Of a stretch of DNA of 64,000 nt, positions 478 through 12,096 are shown piece by piece (positions within the stretch are counted from its first letter, which is position 1; every line of letters starts with the position of its first letter). A model generated the notes under the pieces. The model searched no databases. It was not told the origin of the DNA and saw only the letters and a list, made by a program, of their open reading frames with translations. The position numbers and the translations under genes were made by a program. This stretch comes from a virus. Lineage: Duplodnaviria > Heunggongvirae > Uroviricota > Caudoviricetes. The stretch lies in the IMG/VR virus record IMGVR_UViG_3300008267_000033, positions 64,001 through 128,000 of that record, one strand, 5' to 3'.

Positions 478-1542
478 CTATTTCAGCATGGTTATACATG
501 ATATAATTTTATCTCTATATTGGATGCCAAATTCTTCATTGAAGAATTTTTCAGCGTTGTTTATTCTGCGTTGTTTTGTATTATTGTAGATTTCTGCAAT
601 ATCTTGACTGAGCAAATCTTCAATCACTTGATGAATTTTTTGCAATCTCGCCTGCCAATTGGGTTCTGAATCATAATACTTATGGTCGATGTAATCATCA
701 AATGTGTCAACCCCGATATCTCTGAGATGTGCGATTATGTGCTGATACCCTGCCACCAAGAACAGTTGTGCGCTGGCTATAGGTTGCCAGGTTTTTTCTG
801 TCATATAAAAATTTTTCATATCGGTTTCTGTTACCAGATTGATATAACTATCAGAATGCGCTGGGTGATTATATGGGGTTCCGATCCCGTTGTTGACACT
901 GTGTCTTAATGGAAACTGATGTTTAATGCTGTCCCATTTTTGTGTTATGTTGAATGGTGATAACTCTGATTTAACTAATCGATCGTCTGTATCATGTTCG
1001 ACTGGTTGATCTGAGTACAATGTAATTGCAAAATCACTTATGTCAAACCGTTCTTTAAGCAAAATGTAATTGTAAATTCGGTGCCATCTGGTGTTTCCAT
1101 TCAAACACGATATTTTGTATTTTTTAGGCAACTGTTCTACATTTTTTTTGTACGCAGGTTTCCACATGCTTTTTACAACATAGCAATAGTGGGGATAGTA
1201 AATCATTAACGGCTTACTGTCAGCAGGATTATAAGTTAATTGTATAAAATTTACTCCAGCCTCAGATAGTATTTCATAACATGCCCAATAACCCATACGC
1301 TCTCGACTGAAATCTGCAATCACTAAAGAATACTTTTTTAAATTAATCAACAATGATATAATTGTTTTGTTTCTTGCAGAATCTTCAAGGAAAGCCCACG
1401 GTGGCAAATAGTTAAAATAAAAAATTGTGTGTTTGCCAACAGTGTAGATTTTACCTTGATCAATACCGACGTCAACATTTGATAATGCAACCATATCCTC
1501 AAACAGTTGACTAATATCAGTCACTTGGTATACCAGTTCCAT
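478..1542 (-). CDS. Glycosyltransferase-like protein (phage 'LVTET...TEKT' family, paralog 1)
   Basis: C-terminal YINLVTET..FYMTEKTWQPI..LFLVAG...GVDTFDDYIDH matches the paralogs at 12093 and 20067; the function is inferred. Confidence 0.5.
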   Translation of the reverse strand: MELVYQVTDISQLFEDMVALSNVDVGIDQGKIYTVGKHTIFYFNYLPPWAFLEDSARNKTIISLLINLKKYSLVIADFSRERMGYWACYEILSEAGVNFIQLTYNPADSKPLMIYYPHYCYVVKSMWKPAYKKNVEQLPKKYKISCLNGNTRWHRIYNYILLKERFDISDFAITLYSDQPVEHDTDDRLVKSELSPFNITQKWDSIKHQFPLRHSVNNGIGTPYNHPAHSDSYINLVTETDMKNFYMTEKTWQPIASAQLFLVAGYQHIIAHLRDIGVDTFDDYIDHKYYDSEPNWQARLQKIHQVIEDLLSQDIAEIYNNTKQRRINNAEKFFNEEFGIQYRDKIISCITMLK

Positions 1543-2474
1543 GCGTGTTGGATCATGTGGTACAATTCAAACTGTCGCCAATCCGTGGCCACCATGCCAA
1601 ATTTAGCAGCACTGGCTGTGAGCACAGCAGGATCTCCTGGTCTAGCCTCGCCCATTACGACTTTCAATTTCTTCCCAGTCACACGTTCAGCCGCGGCAAT
1701 GATTTCTCTGTTGCTCGTACCTGTATTGTTGCCCAAATTGTATACGCCAGGTTTTATCTCAGTGTCAAGGGCCATGACATGTGCTCGAGCAATGTCTTCC
1801 ACATGCACATAGTCACGCACACATGTGCCATCCGGTGTGGCAAAATCCACACCATTCAATGTAAATTCTGTATCATCTCTAAGGGCTTGTAACACTCGGG
1901 CAATGATGTGTGTAGCATCTTCAGACTGGCCGTGTCTGGCTTGGCTGTCAGCACCGCAGGCATTGAAGTAACGAAACGCCACATAGTCCAATTTGTAGGC
2001 CTTATGATATGCTGCCATGATGCGTTCTACCATGAGCTTGCTGTCACCGTAAGGCGATATGGGTTCACAAGGATCCACTTCATGGCACGGAGTCATTATG
2101 GGCTCGCCATACACTGCGGCACTTGAACTGAAAATAACTCTGGTCCGGGGCATGCTTCTGCGCACTTGATCCAACAAGGTGAGTGTGTTCACCACATTGT
2201 TTTCAAAGTAACGACCAGGATGCCGGATGCTGGGTCCAACCAGGCTGTTGCCAGCACAGTGAACGATGGCCCGGGGTTCATGTATCAGGATTTTGACTAA
2301 AGAATCTTTGTCAGAAAAGTCTTTTTCAATATAGTCGTCGAACACTGACTTCAGCCGCTTGGGGCATTTGGCCTTGTCAATACCCACCACACGATGCCCT
2401 AAGTCGGCTAGCATTAGTGCAGTTTGTCCGCCAATGTATCCACCAGCACCTGTGACCACTATAGTTTGTTTCAT
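1521..2474 (-). CDS. galE: UDP-glucose 4-epimerase (extended SDR)
   Basis: TGAGGYIG NAD-binding motif, SSSAAVYG, YGDSK (YxxxK), FRYFNACGA, GTCVRDYVHVEDIA, RPGDPAVL. Confidence 0.92.
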   Translation of the reverse strand: MKQTIVVTGAGGYIGGQTALMLADLGHRVVGIDKAKCPKRLKSVFDDYIEKDFSDKDSLVKILIHEPRAIVHCAGNSLVGPSIRHPGRYFENNVVNTLTLLDQVRRSMPRTRVIFSSSAAVYGEPIMTPCHEVDPCEPISPYGDSKLMVERIMAAYHKAYKLDYVAFRYFNACGADSQARHGQSEDATHIIARVLQALRDDTEFTLNGVDFATPDGTCVRDYVHVEDIARAHVMALDTEIKPGVYNLGNNTGTSNREIIAAAERVTGKKLKVVMGEARPGDPAVLTASAAKFGMVATDWRQFELYHMIQHAWNWYTK

Positions 2475-3685
2475 GACTCAACCTTTGTCACATGATACTT
2501 GGCTTCAGCCACATGGTCACGGTATCTCGTGCCCGCCCGATCCCAATGCTCACCATGACCACACAGTATATCAACCACACGATCAACAGTGCCATTGTTC
2601 CAGTTAGATATGAGGCCCATGTTGTGATGAGGTTCTCGCAGGAGATTTTGCATCTTGTGATATGCATCATCAATCGACCACGGAATGTACAGTCTGTTGG
2701 GATCGTTGGCAAAGGTTTCGGGGAATGACCGGTATGCCGGATATAACACATTACAGCCAATAGTGTCAGCCTCACTGACCGTATTGCTGACCCAATCTTG
2801 TAGAGCACAGTTGAACAAAACTCTAGTGTTGTTGAGATGCGCATAGTATTCATTCTTTGTGATGTTGTCGTAGATTTTGAGTTTGCCAGCTGCTTCCATT
2901 GCTCTAGCACGAGTCACATACTCAGGATTGTTGCTACGTAATTCACCACCTGAGTAGATGGCAAACTCGCATGGTTCCGTGGTTAACTCACCATACATTT
3001 CAATCAGGTCCATAAAGAAACCTGGTTGCTTCTCTTGGTCAAAACGTGCGGCAAAGCCCACACGCCTGGGACGATCTGCAAATGGTCGAATATTGCCAGA
3101 ACCGCCAATGCGTTCCAGCACTTCCTCTTTGCCAAATGCAAGACCGGAGATGTTGTAGATTGGACAATCCCATCCAGCAACTCGCATGTGCATTACCATT
3201 TCTTCGTTTGTGGCAAGTACAGCACCGCCAGAATCACACACTAGTTCGCACACCATTTTCTCATACAAGCCCATCCATTTCTGCATGCCCCATACATGAA
3301 CAAAATCATCTGGGTCAATGCTCTGTGCAAGACAGCGGACATAAATCTTAGGCCGTAAAGATTCTGGCACTTGATTAAGTATGTACGGCAAACTCTCAAT
3401 GCCTGGTTGGAACATGTCTTCAAAGTAGATCACATCTTCGGCAGTGACTTTGCCTTGTTGCATCATACGAACCAGATTCATCAGTTGACTCATGCCAAAG
3501 TAACTGCGACCATGTGCATCCAAGACCTGTCCAACCACAATCTTTTGACTGTTGTCTAAGGTCTCTCCTGGCACATAGACTACATCTAGGCCACGCCGAT
3601 CAAACACACGCCGGTTCCATTCTGTCAGTTGCAGTGTGTAGCGAGCTTCATAACTTTCAAGGCCCATGTAATAAAGTTTTCTCAT
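2471..3685 (-). CDS. GT-B fold glycosyltransferase
   Basis: FAARFDQEKQPGFF and C-terminal VSNTVSEADTIGCNVLYP...FPE resemble the GT-B nucleotide-sugar-binding half; ATGA-coupled to galE. Confidence 0.72.
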   Translation of the reverse strand: MRKLYYMGLESYEARYTLQLTEWNRRVFDRRGLDVVYVPGETLDNSQKIVVGQVLDAHGRSYFGMSQLMNLVRMMQQGKVTAEDVIYFEDMFQPGIESLPYILNQVPESLRPKIYVRCLAQSIDPDDFVHVWGMQKWMGLYEKMVCELVCDSGGAVLATNEEMVMHMRVAGWDCPIYNISGLAFGKEEVLERIGGSGNIRPFADRPRRVGFAARFDQEKQPGFFMDLIEMYGELTTEPCEFAIYSGGELRSNNPEYVTRARAMEAAGKLKIYDNITKNEYYAHLNNTRVLFNCALQDWVSNTVSEADTIGCNVLYPAYRSFPETFANDPNRLYIPWSIDDAYHKMQNLLREPHHNMGLISNWNNGTVDRVVDILCGHGEHWDRAGTRYRDHVAEAKYHVTKVES

Positions 3686-4572
3686 TGATTTACTTTCTCT
3701 AATAGTGTATTAAACAGTATAGCATCAGTTGGAAATATGTCAAGTCCGTCACAGCGAATCTCGTAGCCTTTTGCTCGTAATCGCTGTTGAACAATGGCTT
3801 CTGCAATGATATTTACTGGTGGCCATACCAAAGGTTGGTTATTGATAGAGCAATCAACAATACGGTCTAACAAATTAAACTCATCCACAATGTATTTTTG
3901 TGCCCGTTGCCATTTGGTCACAAATTCTGACAGATCCTTGGTGTTAGTCAATCCGCAGTGATTGATTATTTTCAGCAGCGAATCCTTGGTATTGTACAGT
4001 ATATCAATATTGGTGAGTTTTAACCAACTATCGTCTACTTGATTTTGAGAATCAATAAACTCTTGCACATATCCTGGGTAATATATACTGAACCATTCTC
4101 TCAGTTCCCACGGTTTCATCTGAGACCAATGTGTGTAGTCTTTATTCCAGTTTAGAATATTGTGTTGATTTTCTCCAACAAGCATATCCAGTCCCAAATT
4201 TAAACTGACACAAACTTTATAATATTTAAACAATAGATTTAATTCACAAGCACGTAGATCAGGTTGAAATATCAAAATCTTTGTGTCATCCTTCCAAGAT
4301 TTAATCAAAGAAAAATGGTCGATGATTGCTGGAAATTTGAATTCCTTAAACGGATATGTTGGTGTGGTAATGGTTTTGCTGTTAAGAACGTCCAATTGAA
4401 GAAAATTATCTATTGTCGCAATATCACCCACATGTTGTTCCTTGCGAAAGGAATGCATGGACCCGTCATCTAAAATTTTGGCATCAATTGGTGTGCTATG
4501 ATCAGTGTAGTCGCGCAACACTGCTTCTATGGTACTACCAAAAGATCCACAATCAAAGAAGACGTGTATCAT
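3682..4572 (-). CDS. Hypothetical protein, sulfotransferase-like/P-loop N-terminus
   Basis: N-terminal FFDCGSFGSTI...DDGSMH resembles YYPTGCYGTFL...DGNSH of 41847..42875; AT-rich. Confidence 0.4.
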   Translation of the reverse strand: MIHVFFDCGSFGSTIEAVLRDYTDHSTPIDAKILDDGSMHSFRKEQHVGDIATIDNFLQLDVLNSKTITTPTYPFKEFKFPAIIDHFSLIKSWKDDTKILIFQPDLRACELNLLFKYYKVCVSLNLGLDMLVGENQHNILNWNKDYTHWSQMKPWELREWFSIYYPGYVQEFIDSQNQVDDSWLKLTNIDILYNTKDSLLKIINHCGLTNTKDLSEFVTKWQRAQKYIVDEFNLLDRIVDCSINNQPLVWPPVNIIAEAIVQQRLRAKGYEIRCDGLDIFPTDAILFNTLLEKVNQ

Positions 4573-4573
4573 G

Positions 4574-4795
4574 TTAGATATTTCTATTCAAACGACGAGT
4601 ATCCTCATCCCACATGTTCTTGGCATACTTGCCAGCATGCCACTTGCTGAACTGCTGCCAGGCATAGGTTTTAAAATTGTATAGATCCGCTTCGTTGTAG
4701 CGGTATCCATAGTCCTGACAGAACTCTTGGAATATTTCCAAGTCTTCAAAAATCTCTGTGACTTTAGGGTTGGGTTTAAAAGTAGGTCTTGCCAT
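4574..4795 (-). CDS. Hypothetical protein (73 aa)
   Basis: ATG at 4795 preceded by AAGGAG Shine-Dalgarno; fills the gap between flanking genes. Confidence 0.65.
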   Translation of the reverse strand: MARPTFKPNPKVTEIFEDLEIFQEFCQDYGYRYNEADLYNFKTYAWQQFSKWHAGKYAKNMWDEDTRRLNRNI

Positions 4796-4805
4796 GGGGT
4801 TCTCC

Positions 4806-5240
4806 TTAGATGACAATGTTGAGGTTGGGTTGAGTAAGTTCGTATTGGATCAATGCACCATTTTCGCCGTCTTCCGACACTTCGATATGTACCACACGAC
4901 CAGGATAGCGTGAAGCTATCTGTATATATAGGTCGTCTGCCATCATCTCACAACTTTTGTGGTCAAGACTTAGAACGGAACTGTCACTGTTGTACAGCGA
5001 TTCGCACCAGCGTTTGAATTGGATGAATTCAAGGTCTCGGTCGTTGTGGAACACATCAATCCACACCCGGAAGTGAAATATGTGACGATGAGGATACCCA
5101 AGGAATTGTACATCAGCAAGTGCAGGGTCTGTCAAGGCAGCAGGATATTTGTGGATGCCTTCTCGTTGCCAGGTAATCCAAATTTGTCGCTGTGCGTGTT
5201 CCATCACACGATCCACTGTGGCTCTTTGTTCTTGGTTCAT
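4806..5240 (-). CDS. dpdL: QueD/PTPS-like T-fold protein, DpdL-type (putative CDG decarboxylase)
   Basis: LGYPHRHIF fits LxxxHRHxF, the motif I recall for DpdL in place of QueD CxxxHGH; also DLEFIQFK, LDHKSCE and IEVSED T-fold motifs; three genes from dpdA. Confidence 0.65.
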   Translation of the reverse strand: MNQEQRATVDRVMEHAQRQIWITWQREGIHKYPAALTDPALADVQFLGYPHRHIFHFRVWIDVFHNDRDLEFIQFKRWCESLYNSDSSVLSLDHKSCEMMADDLYIQIASRYPGRVVHIEVSEDGENGALIQYELTQPNLNIVI

Positions 5241-5551
5241 GATTTTAAACTTTCGAATGTTATAATTTTGCTTAGTGCTGTGCCAAGATTTTCATCTTCG
5301 TGTACAATGTGCAGGTCACAGTGATGTTGATCTTTGCGTTCGTCATATCTGTTGTACTCTACCATCATGCCACCATTGGCACGATACACAGTAAAACTCA
5401 TTCTGTGCCGACTGCTGCCAATGCTGGCACTGTCATGACTCTTTGAGATACCGGTGATGCTGTTGGATAATCTATCTGTTTGATACGTTGTTTCTTCGCG
5501 GCTTCTAATGCGCTTGGCACGTTTCAATATCCAGTTGTCTAACCATTTCAT
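5237..5551 (-). CDS. Hypothetical protein
   Basis: 104-aa ORF, ATGA-coupled on both sides within the operon. Confidence 0.65.
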   Translation of the reverse strand: MKWLDNWILKRAKRIRSREETTYQTDRLSNSITGISKSHDSASIGSSRHRMSFTVYRANGGMMVEYNRYDERKDQHHCDLHIVHEDENLGTALSKIITFESLKS

Positions 5552-5952
5552 AATTTACTATCGCCTCTATAGTCATCCCAACTAGTAAATGTCTCACGGC
5601 TCATCAGACTGTGCAGACTATGGCACCAGACGCCGGGATTGGTAGCGTCAAAGTCCTTGTCATCTATTTTTAACATTGTATTATAATTCCACAGTTTTGT
5701 ATACGGTACACTTACTCGAATCTGTGGAATAAAGATCATGCTTTCCCATCGTTGCCATTCCAGTGCGTCTTTGGGGTCAAAACTGTGGTTAGCACCAAAG
5801 AAGATGTGCTGTTGAACTTGAAGTAGTCTAGACCCAATACTGTCAACCGGCTGAATGCCCACAACAAACAGCGTCTTCATGCCAAATGCAGGTGTGCGTT
5901 CTACTTCGGTTCCTACAAAGAAGTCAACATTGTCATGTCCTTCACGTTTCAT
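5548..5952 (-). CDS. Conserved phage hypothetical protein adjacent to dpdA
   Basis: 134 aa, coupled to dpdA; motifs EVERTPAFG, HIFFGANHSF, KIDDKDF.ATNPGVW. Confidence 0.65.
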   Translation of the reverse strand: MKREGHDNVDFFVGTEVERTPAFGMKTLFVVGIQPVDSIGSRLLQVQQHIFFGANHSFDPKDALEWQRWESMIFIPQIRVSVPYTKLWNYNTMLKIDDKDFDATNPGVWCHSLHSLMSRETFTSWDDYRGDSKL

Positions 5953-7544
5953 ACTGATTTCTCCAATTGGTCTAGTTGCGTTTCGTCAAAATCTTCTTGT
6001 TCAGTTTGCTCGTATTCAAACAGTGCATTGAACTGTGTACGTGCGTTCTTGGCCTTCTTGCCTTTGAAACCACGTGTGCCCACAATTTCCATCCAGTAGT
6101 CACTATAGTATTCAATGATGGCTTCTGACTCTGCCCGTGTGGGTGCGGCAAATATGGCTTCCACAATGTCTTCAAACTTGGCATAGTCGCCAGTGCTACG
6201 GCGCATCATGGCAGGATGTTCACCGGCATCAAAGCGTCTGTTTGCTTCTTGCACAGCAGTCAAGTGCATCCAAACATTATGGCCCATCAGCAGGGCATAA
6301 CTAAAACTGTCCCATGATGTCTTGCCCCATTTGCCATTTTTGTTCACATCCGGCAGCACATCATACAAGTCGGGATCACGGAAGTTTTCTTCTGTGAGCA
6401 CAACACCAGGCTTGGGTGTACCAGCACGATAGATGCAGATATCCTTCATGGTAAACATGTCGCTGAGTGGTGAGTCTTCCCAGCGTGGATAAATGCCATC
6501 TGCCACAACACCATCCGACCATCTGCGTGTGTCTGTGGCATACTTCTTGTCGTCTGCTGACGGAGCCATTCTATAACTCCACTTGGAATCATGTTCAAAC
6601 ACATTTTCAAAGTACACCTGACCATTGGCTGTGGCGAGGAATGGGCTGGCACAATCAAAGGAGATAGAGAATGCGGGATTAACGTATTTTCTAACTGCCC
6701 TTTGAATCACGGTGAGTAGCACAGCCCATTCCAACTTTGATGTACCCAAGAAGTGCATCCAGTCATGTGTGCCTTCTTGTAACAATCCATCATATTTGAG
6801 TGCAATCAATCTACGCAATACCAAGTGTACATCACACATGTTTTGTCCACCCATGGCCCAGCCATCAAAGTGTGTGTCAGGATACACAGCAGGATCGCAA
6901 TACTGCTTCATGGTTTGATACCATGTTTCTGCTGACGTGTGATTATCGCCTTGCAACACATTCAAGAACCGGGCACCACCATTGGCTTTGCCACGGCGAT
7001 GTTTCATAAAATATTCATTATTGAACTTGGTGGCATCCACTGCTTCTTCCAGCGTTTTGATACCGCAGGCCTTTGACGCTTTCTTGTCGTGTATGACCCA
7101 GGTGGGAATATCAAGAATCATGCCATAGTCGCTGATGGTATCCAGCCACTTCAAAATACTGCTACGTTTCTTTTCGGCCTTGGCACAACCTGAATTGGCT
7201 TTCCAATCACCTTCCCACAGGCCTTTGGCAATCTGGAATCCACCCGAATCGCCCAGCATGAACGTGCCAGGTTCACGATTGCGAACCATGTCTTCACTCC
7301 AGTCCTGCTTGGTCAAATCCAAGTTGGCATGACCACCCGAATACAAACTCCACCGGTAGGGAAACAATGCTTTTTGACTGTTGAGCCAGTTCATCTGTTC
7401 CATGTCTGTCAGCCCTGCAGGAAACCTTGCAGGATCCACATACGGTTCGTTGCGTTGCTTGCCCACAAACGTGGCATAGAAACCTGATATGGCTGGTAAG
7501 AACACAGCATAATCATTTTGTTTAGCGGTTAGGTTATCCTGCAA
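5949..7544 (-). CDS. dpdA: TGT-family 7-deazaguanine DNA transglycosylase (DpdA-like)
   Basis: TGT motifs in order: LGDSGGFQ, MILDIP, NVLQG, GWAMGG, HFLG, SFDCASP. Lacks the CxCxxC zinc site of tRNA-TGT. TTG start. Confidence 0.82.
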   Translation of the reverse strand: MQDNLTAKQNDYAVFLPAISGFYATFVGKQRNEPYVDPARFPAGLTDMEQMNWLNSQKALFPYRWSLYSGGHANLDLTKQDWSEDMVRNREPGTFMLGDSGGFQIAKGLWEGDWKANSGCAKAEKKRSSILKWLDTISDYGMILDIPTWVIHDKKASKACGIKTLEEAVDATKFNNEYFMKHRRGKANGGARFLNVLQGDNHTSAETWYQTMKQYCDPAVYPDTHFDGWAMGGQNMCDVHLVLRRLIALKYDGLLQEGTHDWMHFLGTSKLEWAVLLTVIQRAVRKYVNPAFSISFDCASPFLATANGQVYFENVFEHDSKWSYRMAPSADDKKYATDTRRWSDGVVADGIYPRWEDSPLSDMFTMKDICIYRAGTPKPGVVLTEENFRDPDLYDVLPDVNKNGKWGKTSWDSFSYALLMGHNVWMHLTAVQEANRRFDAGEHPAMMRRSTGDYAKFEDIVEAIFAAPTRAESEAIIEYYSDYWMEIVGTRGFKGKKAKNARTQFNALFEYEQTEQEDFDETQLDQLEKSV

Positions 7545-7740
7545 TTCGACCCCACTTGATTTTCAACCAAATACGTTCGTGAATGAAATAATCTACACTG
7601 AGCATGATGTGCAAGGCAGTGGCAAATCCTGTGGCCGATGCAATGTCACCAGTAAACAACCAAGTCCAAAATATAGTAAACAACCATGCGGTTATTCTAT
7701 ATGTGATCATTCTTGTTACAGTTCTAGCTTTGGTTTCCAT
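7534..7740 (-). CDS. Small membrane protein, DUF2061-like
   Basis: METKARTVTRMITYRI...YFIHERIWLKIKWG with two hydrophobic segments. Confidence 0.7.
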   Translation of the reverse strand: METKARTVTRMITYRITAWLFTIFWTWLFTGDIASATGFATALHIMLSVDYFIHERIWLKIKWGRIAG

Positions 7741-8462
7741 TATTTGCTCTGTGCAGGTAAAATGTAATTGTAAACAGCCACACCCGAGTCCACTGTGATC
7801 TTGGCAGCACCATCATCACTAATGCGGATGGTCTTGTCCCCGGTCAAGGCCATGATGGCCATGAACTGTACAGCCGGCCATGACCATGTACGTTTCAATT
7901 GACCATTTACACCTGCGTGAAACACAAAGTTACCAGCGTGTGTTGAGTGATCACCAAAGAAAAACTTCAAGTCACCGTTTTCAGTCCGGGCCTGGAAGTT
8001 GGGCTCTTCAGCATTGGCCTGTGCTTGCATACGCAATCTTTGGATGGCAGCCACAGTGGGTTCAAATTCAATGTGCCATGTGACACCTTTGAACTTGGGT
8101 GTTTTGAGTTTGTCGTTCACGATCTCTGCTGCCATAAAACGATATGTGTTACGGAAGTCTCCCCCAGCGTTTTCAAACTCAATGCCATCGGGTGCACCTG
8201 TGGCTTTTTTAGTTAATTTGAGTTTGGCATTCTCTCGGTACTCTTGCAAGTTCAACAAAATTTTCAACTTGTTCAAGTTGGGCATGCCAAATGTACCGAT
8301 AAAATCTGCGTGTGGGTTTTTGAATTCACCCTCTAACACTACACTCAAATCTTCTGCCACGCCCACAATGGCTGTGCTTTTGTCGTCTCCGGTGATTTTG
8401 ATCAAGTCAATGCAGCCAAGATCGTGTGTGTGTTCTACCAAGTCTTTAAGATAATCTCTCAT
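7740..8462 (-). CDS. DNA polymerase sliding clamp (gp45/PCNA-like)
   Basis: 240 aa, near the polymerase, beta-rich two-domain pattern; own sigma70-like promoter and AGGAG RBS; clamp loader present at 50358. Confidence 0.6.
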   Translation of the reverse strand: MRDYLKDLVEHTHDLGCIDLIKITGDDKSTAIVGVAEDLSVVLEGEFKNPHADFIGTFGMPNLNKLKILLNLQEYRENAKLKLTKKATGAPDGIEFENAGGDFRNTYRFMAAEIVNDKLKTPKFKGVTWHIEFEPTVAAIQRLRMQAQANAEEPNFQARTENGDLKFFFGDHSTHAGNFVFHAGVNGQLKRTWSWPAVQFMAIMALTGDKTIRISDDGAAKITVDSGVAVYNYILPAQSK

Positions 8463-8482: not shown

Positions 8483-8511
8483 ATTATATAGATTTTTTTA
8501 CTAGTGTGCAA
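8483..8511 (-). promoter_or_regulatory. Sigma70-like early promoter for clamp/dpdA operon
   Basis: TTGCAC (8511-8506), 17 nt, TATAAT (8488-8483). Confidence 0.7.
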
Positions 8512-9439
8512 CTATTTTGGCCAGGCTCTGACCGCCTCTAATTGATTCAATTTCTCCAGGACGGCGTATCTCCATCCAAGATACATCACCTTGCCCGCGG
8601 TTGACAGAAAGAATTTCAAATCCAAGTTGATTGCAATGGGATTGAATTTCTCTACCGGGTGTGTAACACATGAAATTCTTTTCAGCCAGTGCTACACCAT
8701 GTGCCCAATCACAATCGTTGTAGGTGAATATGGCCACCCCACCTGGTCTCAAACGTGCAAACATACTGTCCAAATATTGACGCACCACCTTCATGGGTTT
8801 GTAGTTGAAATAGTTGTAGGCAAAAATCAGTCCAAACTGATTTGCAGGCAATTGCCACAGTGCATCAACATGTTTGTAGTCGTCGATCACATATGGTCTC
8901 AATCTGCGTTGATATTCTGGCGTAAATGCCTGTACAGCAGGTTGCATCAAATCTTCATGCTGATCTACCACGTACAAAGGATCCAACGGCACTAGATCTT
9001 CAATAAACTTTTCGTTGCCAGGACGAATGATCATGCCAGGCAAGCGCCAGTCTGTGTACTGTAGCAGTCGTCCTGTGAGCAACAGTCGACTGTCTGCGTC
9101 AATGGCAAGTCGACGATTTAAAATATATTCCGTGGTTTCATAGCACATTTCTTGTTCGTACAGTTGTTGACTGGCCTGATACTGTACAGGTTCAAGAGCA
9201 GCAATCTGTCGGCGTACATTTGATTTGAGATCGTCCAGGGCAGTTTGTGCATGTTGAAACTCACGAGTAACAGCATTGATCTTTTCAGCAAATGCACTGC
9301 TGTACTCGTCAATTTGCACTGCGTGATTGGCAACCACATGACCTATTTCATGAAACTTTTTAACAGCCACATAGTAATCAGAAGCAAGTTCATTGCTTTC
9401 CAACAAGTTCAAGTATCCAACAAGTTCGCTCAGTTTCAT
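8501..9439 (-). CDS. Class I SAM-dependent methyltransferase-like protein
   Basis: Start moved to ATG 9439, which overlaps the polB stop (ATGA). C-terminal QFGLIFAYNYFNY...LRPGGVAIFTY is typical of the MTase fold; N-terminal helical region. Confidence 0.6.
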   Translation of the reverse strand: MKLSELVGYLNLLESNELASDYYVAVKKFHEIGHVVANHAVQIDEYSSAFAEKINAVTREFQHAQTALDDLKSNVRRQIAALEPVQYQASQQLYEQEMCYETTEYILNRRLAIDADSRLLLTGRLLQYTDWRLPGMIIRPGNEKFIEDLVPLDPLYVVDQHEDLMQPAVQAFTPEYQRRLRPYVIDDYKHVDALWQLPANQFGLIFAYNYFNYKPMKVVRQYLDSMFARLRPGGVAIFTYNDCDWAHGVALAEKNFMCYTPGREIQSHCNQLGFEILSVNRGQGDVSWMEIRRPGEIESIRGGQSLAKIVAH

Positions 9440-12096
9440 TCGAATGAGAATAATGATGTAAATGTGTTTTCTGTGTTGGTGGCAGCGGCCAGATCCCAAT
9501 CCAACACGCCCAACAGATTGTCAATCTTTTGATCCACCACAGTGGCTTCCATCTCTGTGTCATCAAAAGGCAAGTCCTTGAACCACTGCGGCAGGTGCAT
9601 CTCGTCTGTGGGATAGCCAATTGATGTCCAGCCTAGAGCATTGCTTCGCAGTTTGCACACAATGGTCTTCATGCCGTCAACCACCTGCATGCTATAGTTG
9701 TCTGAATTCATTCGTCGCAAGTTGTTCCAGTTCAAGGCCGCACGTACATGCCCAGGCATGTTGGCTTTGCCCAGGCGTTCTTCTTCCTTGCCGTACTTGG
9801 TCAAGTTGTTCACACGCTTGGGCGAGCCTTTTTCCCAGCCTGGTCGCTCTTTGAATTCATACTTGAACTCACGCACACGTTCGATAATTTCATCACGTTC
9901 AGCACCAGACAGCACTTTATTTAGAATTTCTAACAGGAAGTCTTGAATAACTTTGGGTGTGTCACTACGCTTTAGATCCAGGCCAGTGGCCTTGGTCTTG
10001 CCAATTGCACCGTTGACATCTAGCCGTTTGTTTTCAATGTCAATGGCATTCACAGCATAGCGTTTCTTGGTGATAAACAGGCCACGGTCCGCCACTGTTT
10101 CACGTCCAGCCCGGATCAAATCTCCCATGTCTCTGGGGCAGTGGAAAGCACGTTCCATGAATGCTGGAAATGAGTCATTCACCTGGTCAGCAATGCTGTC
10201 GTACAACTGGATACAGATTTCTTTTGACCAGGCCATGCGACCTTCGGCAACTTCTTGTTTGAGCACAGGCCATGCTGAAAAGTAACACGAGTCTGTATCA
10301 CCATAGATCACTGCCCGACCCACATGATCGTATTCGCCAGTGATACATTCATTCAAGTGTGCATCCATGTGTTTGGCAATACTACGCCCAGTCAAGGTAG
10401 TTGATTGTCCAATACGTTTGTCAAAGAACCTGCAGCCGGGATTGAGAATAGCACCATACAAACTGTTCAAGTTAATCTTCTTGACCAGCTGGCGTTTGTC
10501 CCAGAACGCAATCTCTTTGGCATCTCGAGCTTCTTTCTTTTTGGCCTGCATTTCTTGACGTTCACGATACCAGCGTTCCAGCAGGCCTGGGATAACGCCT
10601 TTCTTCTCGTAGGTGAATATGGTACCATTTGCACTCAAAACCCAAGGTTGGTTAGAATCAAACAACATGTACCAAATTTCAGCACCCGAGTGTACAGTCT
10701 CTTCACCTGACTGCCAGTCAATGGTGATCTCTGTGCCACGTTGCTGTTCCATTACTGCTGTGTATTCTAGACTTGCAAACACACCTTCCCATGCAGCCGC
10801 AAATGAGTCACCCTTGGACATTTTGTCTTTGATATACCTATCAGTCATTACGGGGCGCAGTTGACCTATAATGGTTTCTGGACCCATGTTCAACGCACGA
10901 ATTGCCGACGGATATAGACTGTTGATGTCAACCGACCCAATCCACTCATGTAATCCTTTCTTGGGATACGCCACATAAGCACCGGCTGCCTGCGTATCGT
11001 CATCTGTAAGACGCTGTTGTCGATTGGGCACAACCATGCCACGTTCATGCGCTTCGTTGATGATGGCCTGTTCAGTCACAGCCACAGCACCCATTGTGGT
11101 GGCCAACAGCACAGTGTTGGCATGTGCCAGTTCGCTGGCCAGTTCCAAGAAGCGTAATTTCTTGTCCAGTTTGTCCAACAACAAGGTATCTTGCCTGTTG
11201 TATTCGATAAAGGTCTTGAAGTGCTGGTTGTACAACTGATCCAGTGTGCCTTCAAACTGTGTCTTGCGCTCACCCAGTTCGTACTCAGCAATGGCATCCA
11301 GGCTGTAGCTATGACGCTCTTCATAAGTGTACTTGCGATACAGTTGCATATAGTCCATATGCACACGACCCACCAGGTCATAGGTTTCATTCTCAGCACC
11401 AAAGCGTTCAAACACACGCTTCTTGGGAAACTGTCCCCACAAACAAAAACGTCTGGTGTCGTCTTTGCTGAGTACTCGAGTGATACGATTCACTGTGTAG
11501 GGTATGTCATAGCCTTCCGAGTTCCAACCGCTCAGGATGTCTGCATCTTCGATCAGGTCCAAGAACATCTTTAACATTTCTGACTCAGACTCGCACAGCA
11601 CAGTGTTCTCAAATTCTCCACAGATCTCACGAGCAGTCTCTGCACTCATGTGGCGCGGGGCCACCACCAGTGTGACCAGTTGCTCCAACCAATTCAGATA
11701 TACCGATATGGCAGTGATGGCATTGAAGGGATCTGTAACAGGAGAGAATCCACGCACTGGATCAAACGCAACTTCAATGTCAAAGAACGCTGTGTTCAGT
11801 GTGGGTGCGTCTTGATCTTTGTAGTTTTCTTCAAAGCAACGGAATATGGGATTGATATCCGATTCGTAGATTTGTCGCCCGCTTTGTGCTCGAACTTCTT
11901 TGCGAAACTCTTTGTTGTTGCGTGTGCTGAACCTTGACACAGGTGTGCCGTAGATGCTTTGAAACTTGCCTCGAGCATCGTCGTAGTAAAAAACATAATT
12001 GGCAGGATATTCCCGGTACTGCCTTTGGCCATCGCGGCGTTCTACCACGTGAATGCGATCGTGCTCACGATCAAATAGTGCGTCAATATAGCTCAA
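9436..12096 (-). CDS. Family B DNA polymerase
   Basis: Exonuclease FFDIEV, GWNSEGYDIPY, YNRQD; polymerase DINSLYPS, KINLNSLYG, YGDTDS, KKRYA; no intein. Confidence 0.97.
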   Translation of the reverse strand: MSYIDALFDREHDRIHVVERRDGQRQYREYPANYVFYYDDARGKFQSIYGTPVSRFSTRNNKEFRKEVRAQSGRQIYESDINPIFRCFEENYKDQDAPTLNTAFFDIEVAFDPVRGFSPVTDPFNAITAISVYLNWLEQLVTLVVAPRHMSAETAREICGEFENTVLCESESEMLKMFLDLIEDADILSGWNSEGYDIPYTVNRITRVLSKDDTRRFCLWGQFPKKRVFERFGAENETYDLVGRVHMDYMQLYRKYTYEERHSYSLDAIAEYELGERKTQFEGTLDQLYNQHFKTFIEYNRQDTLLLDKLDKKLRFLELASELAHANTVLLATTMGAVAVTEQAIINEAHERGMVVPNRQQRLTDDDTQAAGAYVAYPKKGLHEWIGSVDINSLYPSAIRALNMGPETIIGQLRPVMTDRYIKDKMSKGDSFAAAWEGVFASLEYTAVMEQQRGTEITIDWQSGEETVHSGAEIWYMLFDSNQPWVLSANGTIFTYEKKGVIPGLLERWYRERQEMQAKKKEARDAKEIAFWDKRQLVKKINLNSLYGAILNPGCRFFDKRIGQSTTLTGRSIAKHMDAHLNECITGEYDHVGRAVIYGDTDSCYFSAWPVLKQEVAEGRMAWSKEICIQLYDSIADQVNDSFPAFMERAFHCPRDMGDLIRAGRETVADRGLFITKKRYAVNAIDIENKRLDVNGAIGKTKATGLDLKRSDTPKVIQDFLLEILNKVLSGAERDEIIERVREFKYEFKERPGWEKGSPKRVNNLTKYGKEEERLGKANMPGHVRAALNWNNLRRMNSDNYSMQVVDGMKTIVCKLRSNALGWTSIGYPTDEMHLPQWFKDLPFDDTEMEATVVDQKIDNLLGVLDWDLAAATNTENTFTSLFSFE

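Follow-up and report, generated by a model that had tools for sequence, protein, structure and literature searches.

A predicted glycosyltransferase and UDP-glucose 4-epimerase within a DpdA/DpdL-type 7-deazaguanine module of a jumbo phage fragment

What does a glycosyltransferase do inside a phage locus that appears to be devoted to replacing guanine in DNA? The question is raised by a 64,000-nucleotide stretch of Caudoviricetes DNA (the window), bases 64001–128000 of the 146,212-base IMG/VR record IMGVR_UViG_3300008267_000033. In this window, a DpdA-like protein with the fold of tRNA-guanine transglycosylases (TGT), a putative T-fold protein of the DpdL type, a GT-B glycosyltransferase (GT) and a UDP-glucose 4-epimerase (GalE) are encoded in one chain of genes on the minus strand. 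All four genes were recovered as the original prediction, made from the sequence, had described them. Phage systems making 7-deazaguanines with DpdA and DpdL are known, and what the gene content adds is a GT and a GalE inside such a module. A module of the DpdA and DpdL types is supported by the sequence and, with the genes outside the window counted in, is complete; the GT very probably belongs to the same pathway. Whether the whole amounts to a QueC-less, DpdL-type module for DNA guanine replacement with a built-in sugar step is, in our judgement, evenly balanced. Of the predicted 7-deazaguanine locus with a linked sugar step, the assignment to the pathway and the linkage of the GT have thus stood, and the product is a proposal.

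The putative base-exchange enzyme is a 531-aa protein (window positions 5949–7544; this and all other window features below lie on the minus strand) ending in a basic linker and an acidic tail. Its translation contains the motifs LGDSGGFQ (residues 97–104), VLQG (196–199), HFLG (264–267) and SFDCASPF (295–302) and lacks the CxCxxC zinc cluster, as had been noted at the outset. A model built with AlphaFold2 (AF2) on 34 relatives was of moderate confidence (predicted local distance difference test, pLDDT, 71.8; predicted template modelling score, pTM, 0.77), the last 40 residues being disordered. In Foldseek the model matched only tRNA-guanine transglycosylases (E ~2e-5, probability 1.0), and its VIA alignment with bacterial, archaeal and eukaryotic enzymes (TGT/QTRT1/ArcTGT) gave Z of 15.2–17.3 and root-mean-square deviations of 4.3–5.7 Å over 288–321 residues. 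Residues D99, D145, G199, G233, H264-F-L-G267 and D297 (SFDxASPF) are invariant between this clade and the Pseudomonas jumbo phage PA5oct, at 40% identity of the proteins, with D99 (LGDSGGFQ) and D297 (SFDCASPF) being so in 35 sequences including PA5oct. By motif order, these two aspartates would be the equivalents of D102 and D280 of Z. mobilis TGT.

By its model, the DpdA-like protein is a TGT-fold enzyme with residues of the catalytic type; at the sequence level it stands outside Pfam TGT and outside the DpdA3 group. Pfam TGT (PF01702) had no match in the protein or in the whole genome record, and phmmer against PDB sequences gave nothing, either with the single sequence or with a profile. 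The same two queries found no match to the DpdA genes of phages phiST, ACP17, X1 and BUCT-ZZ01, the first three of which are DpdA3. Among deposited phages, relatives were found only in PA5oct-like phages (PA5oct EST35_0316, 37–41% identity), Sinorhizobium phage Phosso and one Vibrio jumbo phage; in metagenomes, near-identical copies number in the thousands and come from contigs of ~350 kb. The DpdA-like protein is encoded together with genes for 7-deazaguanine synthesis, FolE, QueD and QueE lying on the same strand at a distance of 11–22 kb.

The second component is a 144-aa DpdL-type paralogue of QueD (4806–5240) whose signature, L47-GYP-H51-R52-H53-I54-F55, is an exact LxxxHRHxF. The motif had been named as the mark of DpdL, in agreement with the published signature: in DpdL, the proposed decarboxylase of 7-carboxy-7-deazaguanine (CDG), the CxxxHGH of QueD is changed to LxxxHRHxF (Cui, Hutinet et al., NAR 2023, PMC10516641). 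In tblastn, the protein was 57% identical to the copy of Acidovorax phage ACP17 (E 2e-39) and 35% identical to phiST CGPG_00067 (E 5e-10). Across 17 sequences drawn from nine lineages, L47, H51, H53, F55, E71, E98 and E123-D124 do not vary. When the family was aligned by hhalign to the QueDs of four phages, the probability was 89% and E 2e-6, over only the C-terminal 65 columns. Pfam PTPS had no match in the window copy and a weak match in one relative, and the sole library match was phrog_17812, a family with no function assigned.

The original prediction saw no folE, queD, queE or queC. For the first three this did not hold beyond the window: the search of the rest of the genome that it had proposed found all of them just outside, on the same strand and 5–14 kb further along. 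FolE is encoded at genome 57962–58705 (135 bits, above cut-off) and QueD at genome 54156–54689 (window −9844 to −9311; 54 bits, above cut-off), while QueE, at genome 49755–50600, shares 46% identity with the QueE annotated in Synechococcus phage BUCT-ZZ01 and 31% with the 7-carboxy-7-deazaguanine synthase of PA5oct and matches five NCBIfam QueE models at ~1e-13. A queC gene was indeed not found in the record, which is ~42% complete by CheckV; the sole weak match, elsewhere in the genome (C1:134231–135013), was rejected as NAD synthase (NadE, 1.8e-49). FolE, QueD and QueE without QueC is the pattern of DpdL phages (PMC10516641). We also observed that QueD of the window phage, ACP17, BUCT-ZZ01 and phiST reads C-x3-H-G-Y and not C-x3-H-G-H, the tyrosine being invariant in all four, and that a membrane protein of the Bax inhibitor-1 family (PF01027, 1.6e-53) is encoded between FolE and QueD (genome C1:56223–56921).

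The predicted GT-B enzyme, a protein of 404 aa (2471–3685), was borne out by its fold model and by structural matches of the GT4/GT5 kind. The AF2 model, from an alignment of 109 sequences at 29–56% identity, shows the two Rossmann-like domains of the GT-B fold with high confidence (pLDDT 95.7, pTM 0.93). Foldseek returned at least 500 PDB matches at E ≤ 0.001, and the best 50 listed were all GT-B; the top matches were glycogen synthase, BshA, SenB, MshA and PimA (E 2e-12 to 4e-9), GlgM and sucrose-phosphate synthase, with the pterin glucosyltransferase BGluT at rank 38. Searched against PDB, the family profile reached the GT4 chains WlaC/PglH (3.5e-4), GlgM, WbaZ and MshA. Pfam Glycos_transf_1 had no match in the window protein itself, and a family member at 40% identity (P0279) scored 27.7 bits against a cut-off of 26.4. 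R214-x4-K219 is invariant, and D297 and E305 (D297-x7-E305) are each conserved in 90% or more of the 109 sequences; these are presumably the positions of the nucleotide-sugar donor in GT4 enzymes. On the model and these residues, the protein is taken to be an active sugar transferase. An exhaustive search placed its homologues in 768 clusters at 50% identity.

The 317-aa protein encoded next (1521–2474) scored 288.4 bits with TIGR01179, above the NCBIfam equivalog cut-off of 262.3 that confirms its earlier naming as UDP-glucose 4-epimerase, and matched Pfam Epimerase at 1e-53. As it is a true GalE by the NCBI cut-off, UDP-galactose is a fair guess for the donor of the GT. Radical SAM, GDSL/DUF6071, HIT and cytidylyltransferase-like genes are found in a variable island between GalE and FolE. 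In 41 related loci GalE is followed by the DegT-like gene, which encodes only 196 aa, about the first half of an aminotransferase profile, and the gene after it encodes 333 aa with no family match (genome C1:60153–61741, window −3847 to −2259, for the two genes); together they may represent a split or remodelled aminotransferase. In ACP17, Xanthomonas phage X1 and PA5oct, no sugar-nucleotide genes adjoin the GT. This would be consistent with the use of a common host donor by those three, and with a sugar particular to its lineage, and possibly tailored, in the window phage. We set aside a route to pterin glycosides (FolE, PTPS and a GT, as for cyanobacterial biopterin glucoside), since QueE and DpdA are always present.

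How regular is the association of the GT with dpdA and dpdL? We compared 80 IMG/VR loci whose DpdA-like gene is 69–95% identical to that of the window. The GT was present in 60, GalE in 50 and the DegT-like gene in 41, and the order was constant: polymerase, 240-aa gene, DpdA, 134-aa family, DpdL, 80-aa gene, GT, GalE and DegT-like gene. Every related locus that reaches that far contains the GT (60/60), the other contigs ending earlier, and the 104-, 296- and 354-aa and radical SAM genes are variable inserts. Among deposited phages, GT homologues (E ≤ 1e-3) occurred in five records of four distinct phages, ACP17 having been deposited twice, and all of them have dpdL. The homologue of BUCT-ZZ01 (62% identity) adjoins dpdL, the order in ACP17 is DpdA, GT, DpdL and QueE, and that in X1 and in Xanthomonas phage BUDD is GT, DpdA, DpdL and QueE. 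A further homologue, PA5oct EST35_0317, lies between DpdA and DpdL (22% identity; blastp E 3e-11, profile E 2e-40), and with the GT profile the E-values of the PA5oct, ACP17, X1/BUDD and BUCT-ZZ01 homologues ranged from 2e-40 to 1e-138. In all four divergent metagenome contigs (GT 31–40% identical), a gene with LxxxHRHxF was found at most two genes from the GT. Co-occurrence with dpdA/dpdL, which had been put forward as a check, was thus strongly positive across independent lineages, and judged by gene neighbourhoods dpdL is regularly accompanied by the GT in a second, large group of systems beside phiST.

Two observations concern other members of these modules. In two of the divergent contigs (L099 6132–8468, L101 2193–4526), the GT–DpdL pair is followed, in the place expected for DpdA, by a protein of ~778 aa with no Pfam match and no DSGG motif. 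The 134-aa protein of the window (5548–5952) belongs to a family without annotation. Its gene comes after dpdA in 77 of the 80 related loci, and in ACP17 the family member is encoded between FolE and dpdA. The window copy lacks an in-frame block of 33 residues that is present in all 15 aligned homologues (~165 aa each; consensus FLxRGYLCTLDIDV...). PDB phmmer gave nothing useful for this family and an Atlas search with a full-length relative of 167 aa gave nothing.

Is the target DNA or tRNA? The module sits among replication genes (polymerase and clamp-like) here and in ACP17, X1 and PA5oct. PA5oct has the same type of DpdA together with a GT homologue and DpdL. Its DNA is reported to resist restriction enzymes acting at G sites and to be attacked by nucleases sensing modified G, and a modified G was inferred by the authors from that and from its QueE and PTPS genes (PMC12191111). 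The tail of the DpdA-like protein carries the peptide FNALFEY (residues 505–511, positions 6012–6032), a candidate for docking onto a clamp, between the basic Gly/Lys linker and the acidic end. The peptide matches the C-terminus, FTSLFSF-E, of the family B DNA polymerase encoded nearby (9436–12096), and PA5oct has a corresponding pair, FNSLFDV in DpdA and FDSLFGW in the polymerase. In 77 of 78 related loci the polymerase ends in F-x-x-L-F-x-x, 0–2 residues from its C-terminus, and the same pattern occurs 20–28 residues from the end of DpdA in 65 of 78, most of the others having near variants. Three DpdA proteins (L064, L083 and L087) have lost the internal FNALF-type peptide and carry a new C-terminal L-F peptide (…PELFGE, …PDLFGE and …TTLFSF), the last of which is nearly identical to the polymerase end. 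The strict pattern F-x-x-L-F-x-[FWYV] was found three times in the 45,663 residues of open reading frames (ORFs) in the genome: in the polymerase, the DpdA-like protein and a radical SAM protein. Together, the setting among replication genes, the restriction data of PA5oct and the polymerase-type peptide favour DNA over tRNA as the target.

The candidate partner of this peptide is the 240-aa protein encoded by the first gene of the chain (7740–8462), for which a role as sliding clamp is a lead. In the Atlas, the clusters closest to it carry the names PCNA-domain or gp45 sliding clamp (score 0.95–0.98), and in the complex model it folds as a trimer with pLDDT ~90; Pfam had no match, phmmer against PDB sequences gave nothing useful and the only annotation of the PA5oct homologue is 'structural protein'. 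A model of three copies of the protein with DpdA residues 470–531 reached an ipSAE of 0.68 against 0.01 for the best control, the mark applied being one reached by 58 of 80 solved complexes and by 2 of 110 mismatched pairs. Three runs agreed in at least 43% of contacts, the pLDDT of the partner was 49, and the contacts involve DpdA residues 497–512 and clamp residues 38–42, 120–127, 194–196, 217–219 and 234–240. As complexes of clamps with peptides have already been solved, the pass of the model may partly reflect likeness to them. A DpdA-like enzyme that is tethered to the clamp and directed to DNA is the likeliest reading of these results taken together.

The following pathway would accommodate the observations. 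By homology, FolE, QueD and QueE would convert GTP to CDG, which the DpdL-type protein would convert further, most likely by decarboxylation to 7-deazaguanine as proposed for phiST, and the 531-aa enzyme would then swap guanine in phage DNA for the deazaguanine base. Given the peptide that its tail has in common with the polymerase end, the enzyme probably rides the phage sliding clamp, and it would work at or just behind the replication fork. The GT4-type GT would most likely move a hexose onto the deazaguanine, either as the free base before insertion or in DNA, and as the DpdL of phiST seems to work without a GT, this step most likely comes after DpdL. Candidate acceptors are the 2-amino group, a pyrrole carbon or, if DpdL is no decarboxylase, a different base. 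In huimycin and dapiramicin, the sugar sits on the 2-amino group of a 7-deazapurine, and HuiG of huimycin biosynthesis shows that a GT can take a free 7-deazapurine as its acceptor. UDP-galactose could come from GalE, and the neighbouring variable genes may tailor the sugar further. We regard a base of the 7-deazaguanine type in the phage DNA as highly likely, and we give a sugar-bearing deazaguanine in virion DNA an even chance. The fullest version, in which guanine is replaced by a sugar-bearing 7-deazaguanine through clamp-tethered exchange coupled to replication and the sugar is lineage-specific (here it would be either galactose or an amino sugar, perhaps with tailoring by the radical SAM island, and other lineages would draw on different donors), is put forward tentatively, as possible but somewhat short of probable.

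Several points weigh against a sugar-bearing deazaguanine in DNA. The folds, motifs, gene linkage and synteny are observations, and it is from these that we infer all chemical steps, the DNA target and the sugar. 7-Deazaguanine has no major-groove hydroxyl, amine side chain or carboxyl, and the sugar would have to be carried on N2, a ring carbon or another base. The DpdA-like protein is tied to the TGTs through a fold model of moderate confidence only, with no sequence match to Pfam TGT or DpdA3. The 80 related loci are close kin and so count as little more than one observation, and the incompleteness of the record leaves the absence of QueC unproven. DNA has been analysed for a single DpdL phage, phiST, and contains plain 2'-deoxy-7-deazaguanosine (dDG) (PMC10516641); phiST has no GT of the 404-aa family and a 159-aa gene in that position, so that DpdL does not need the GT. 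Finally, dpdL and dpdA from phiST or ACP17 produced no dDG in E. coli, for which the authors suggested missing enzymes (PMC10516641), and the decarboxylase activity of DpdL is therefore still a proposal.

The example of phiST lends itself to a simpler account, in which the DNA carries plain dDG and the GT, GalE and tailoring genes serve another acceptor, such as a protein of the virion or of the host, a glycan of the host or a lipid, the genes being neighbours only as members of an early/middle replication region. This would agree with phiST making dDG without such a GT, with the lack of an obvious sugar acceptor on dDG, with the promoter-like site just before the GT, through which separate expression is possible, and with the genes downstream of GalE forming a variable sugar island. 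We nevertheless consider it unlikely: the GT lies between dpdA and dpdL or beside dpdL in PA5oct, ACP17, X1/BUDD, BUCT-ZZ01 and the four divergent contigs, which have otherwise little in common, and each of the five deposited records with a GT homologue at E ≤ 1e-3 also holds dpdL. That pairing is also what one would expect if the GT and DpdL performed consecutive steps on one small substrate and no sugar were left in DNA, the glycoside being either a transient intermediate for DpdL/DpdA or a soluble, huimycin-like compound used against the host. HuiG does glycosylate a free 7-deazapurine, the BUCT-ZZ01 module includes a phosphoribosyltransferase, and the failure of dpdL and dpdA alone to give dDG in E. 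coli, with the missing enzymes that it suggests, points the same way (PMC10516641). On the other hand, phiST DpdL appears functional without a GT, the modules containing the GT all keep DpdA and sit among replication genes, and the DNA of PA5oct itself behaves as modified (PMC12191111), which makes a GT acting on small molecules only, to our mind, quite improbable.

The remaining alternative moves the target from DNA to RNA: the TGT-fold enzyme would modify host or phage tRNA, and the sugar step would parallel the glycosylated queuosines of eukaryotic tRNA. All structural matches of the DpdA-like model are indeed tRNA enzymes, and in animals mannosyl-queuosine is made by a GT4-type enzyme. Nevertheless, the zinc site is absent from the DpdA-like enzyme, its gene lies between those of the polymerase and the clamp and carries the polymerase C-terminal peptide that was modelled onto the clamp, and the G sites of PA5oct DNA are resistant (PMC12191111); a tRNA target thus appears very improbable, and guanine replacement in DNA with an added sugar remains the reading that we prefer.

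The module is part of a longer chain of genes. Close relatives occur on metagenome contigs of 320–365 kb, so that the record covers only part of a genome of jumbo-phage size. At the DNA level no deposited phage was matched by a 9-kb query in megablast. The order of the genes and the similarity of their proteins link the region to Pseudomonas jumbo phages of the PA5oct group. The chain runs from position 8462 downward and on beyond the start of the window, its junctions being 4-nt overlaps in five cases and otherwise overlaps of 1, 11 or 22 nt, with one 1-nt gap. Besides the genes already described, it comprises those of a 68-aa DUF2061 membrane protein (7534–7740; Pfam PF09834, 26.6 bits, above cut-off), a 104-aa protein found in only 17 of the 80 related loci (5237–5551), an 80-aa protein kept in 61 related loci (4574–4816), a 296-aa accessory insert found in 4 of 80 (3682–4572) and a variable 354-aa protein found in 7 loci at ~32% identity (478–1542), and the 5' part of the radical SAM gene (342 aa; 1–499), with which the chain leaves the window. 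Outside the window it continues toward the DegT-like, GDSL-like, FolE, QueD and QueE genes. Pfam, PHROGs and NCBIfam had no match for the DpdA-like, GT, 134-, 104-, 80-, 296- and 354-aa proteins.

The original prediction placed these genes in one overlap-coupled operon behind a clamp promoter. The chain of overlapping genes was found, while the promoter is a consensus match only, TGCACA-16-TATAAT (8483–8510), after which come an AGGAG and the ATG that starts the clamp-like gene, and the clamp itself is a lead. Promoter-like sites in the region numbered 33 against 25.9 ± 4.0 expected, an enrichment that is not significant. A second and better match, TTGACA-16-TATACT with a TG (3743–3716), falls within the 3' end of the 296-aa gene and precedes the GT start by 30 nt, and the GT and GalE may have a promoter of their own. 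Between the polymerase and the clamp-like gene, an ORF of 332 aa (8501–9499) showed weak matches to class I methyltransferases (Methyltransf_23, E 3e-4), and relatives keep ~1 kb at this place.

To our knowledge, sugars on phage DNA are always attached to pyrimidines, and the 7-deazaguanine bases of DNA are all small. A sugar-bearing deazaguanine would, if true, be the first glycosylated purine known in DNA and a new class of DNA base, and a glycosylated deazapurine would bear on restriction, CRISPR, the nucleases and glycosylases that sense modified DNA, sequencing and enzymology. Our searches of the literature, with most subscription journals outside their reach, found no glycosylated 7-deazaguanine in DNA and no GT in a DpdA/DpdL module. 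The sugar step could explain why dpdL and dpdA alone failed in E. coli, and also what the G modification of PA5oct is. Base exchange tethered to the clamp would change the view of such modifications as simply post-replicative. The GT family is very common in metagenomes, and with PA5oct, ACP17, X1 and BUCT-ZZ01 available in culture the question can be put to a direct test.

Among known systems, the T4 alpha- and beta-glucosyltransferases offer a model for a DNA-directed GT. They are phage GT-B enzymes that move a UDP-sugar onto a modified base, 5-hydroxymethylcytosine, after replication, but their acceptor is a pyrimidine with a hydroxyl and they belong to other GT families, the comparison being one by description. 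HuiG of Kutzneria albida, likened by its reaction and not by sequence, moves a UDP-sugar onto a free 7-deazapurine base; unlike the module here, it belongs to a bacterial pathway of secondary metabolism that has no nucleic-acid insertion enzyme. The clients of the T4/RB69 gp45 clamp resemble the arrangement proposed for DpdA: the hydrophobic L-F peptide at the polymerase C-terminus, which in T4/RB69 is the C-terminal clamp motif of gp43, is repeated here on a second enzyme and was modelled into the pocket under the clamp C-terminus. In the literature examined, a base-exchange enzyme was not found among such clients, and binding here is modelled only.

Of the 7-deazaguanine systems, phiST has the same precursor genes (FolE, QueD and QueE) and no QueC, the DpdL signature LxxxHRHxF and an enzyme of the TGT superfamily beside DpdL (PMC10516641). 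It differs in that its DpdA3, of 259 aa, has no detectable similarity to the 531-aa protein and in lacking a GT-B enzyme, GalE and any homologue of the 134-aa family, with plain dDG in its DNA. PA5oct (Wroclawvirus) represents the only cultured group with the same type of DpdA; its polymerase and clamp-like genes are followed by DpdA, the GT homologue, DpdL and QueE, it has the peptide pair of polymerase and DpdA, and its DNA is reported to be modified at G (PMC12191111), the chemical nature of the modification not being given in the papers examined. In contrast with the window, it has no GalE or DegT-like gene next to the GT, and the GT is only 22% identical. Acidovorax ACP17, Xanthomonas X1/BUDD and Synechococcus BUCT-ZZ01 have a DpdA of 424–447 aa that is not detectably similar to the 531-aa protein, but all of them hold the GT homologue inside a FolE–QueD–DpdA–DpdL–QueE cluster, and a relative of the 134-aa protein, of ~161 aa, is encoded in ACP17 as well. 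BUCT-ZZ01 differs further by a second GT (447 aa; Glyco_trans_1_4 E 3e-5, weak match to the GT profile) and an annotated xanthine-guanine phosphoribosyltransferase (L013 6010–7353 and 4093–4554, respectively), gene content that hints at a disaccharide or at a route at the nucleotide level.

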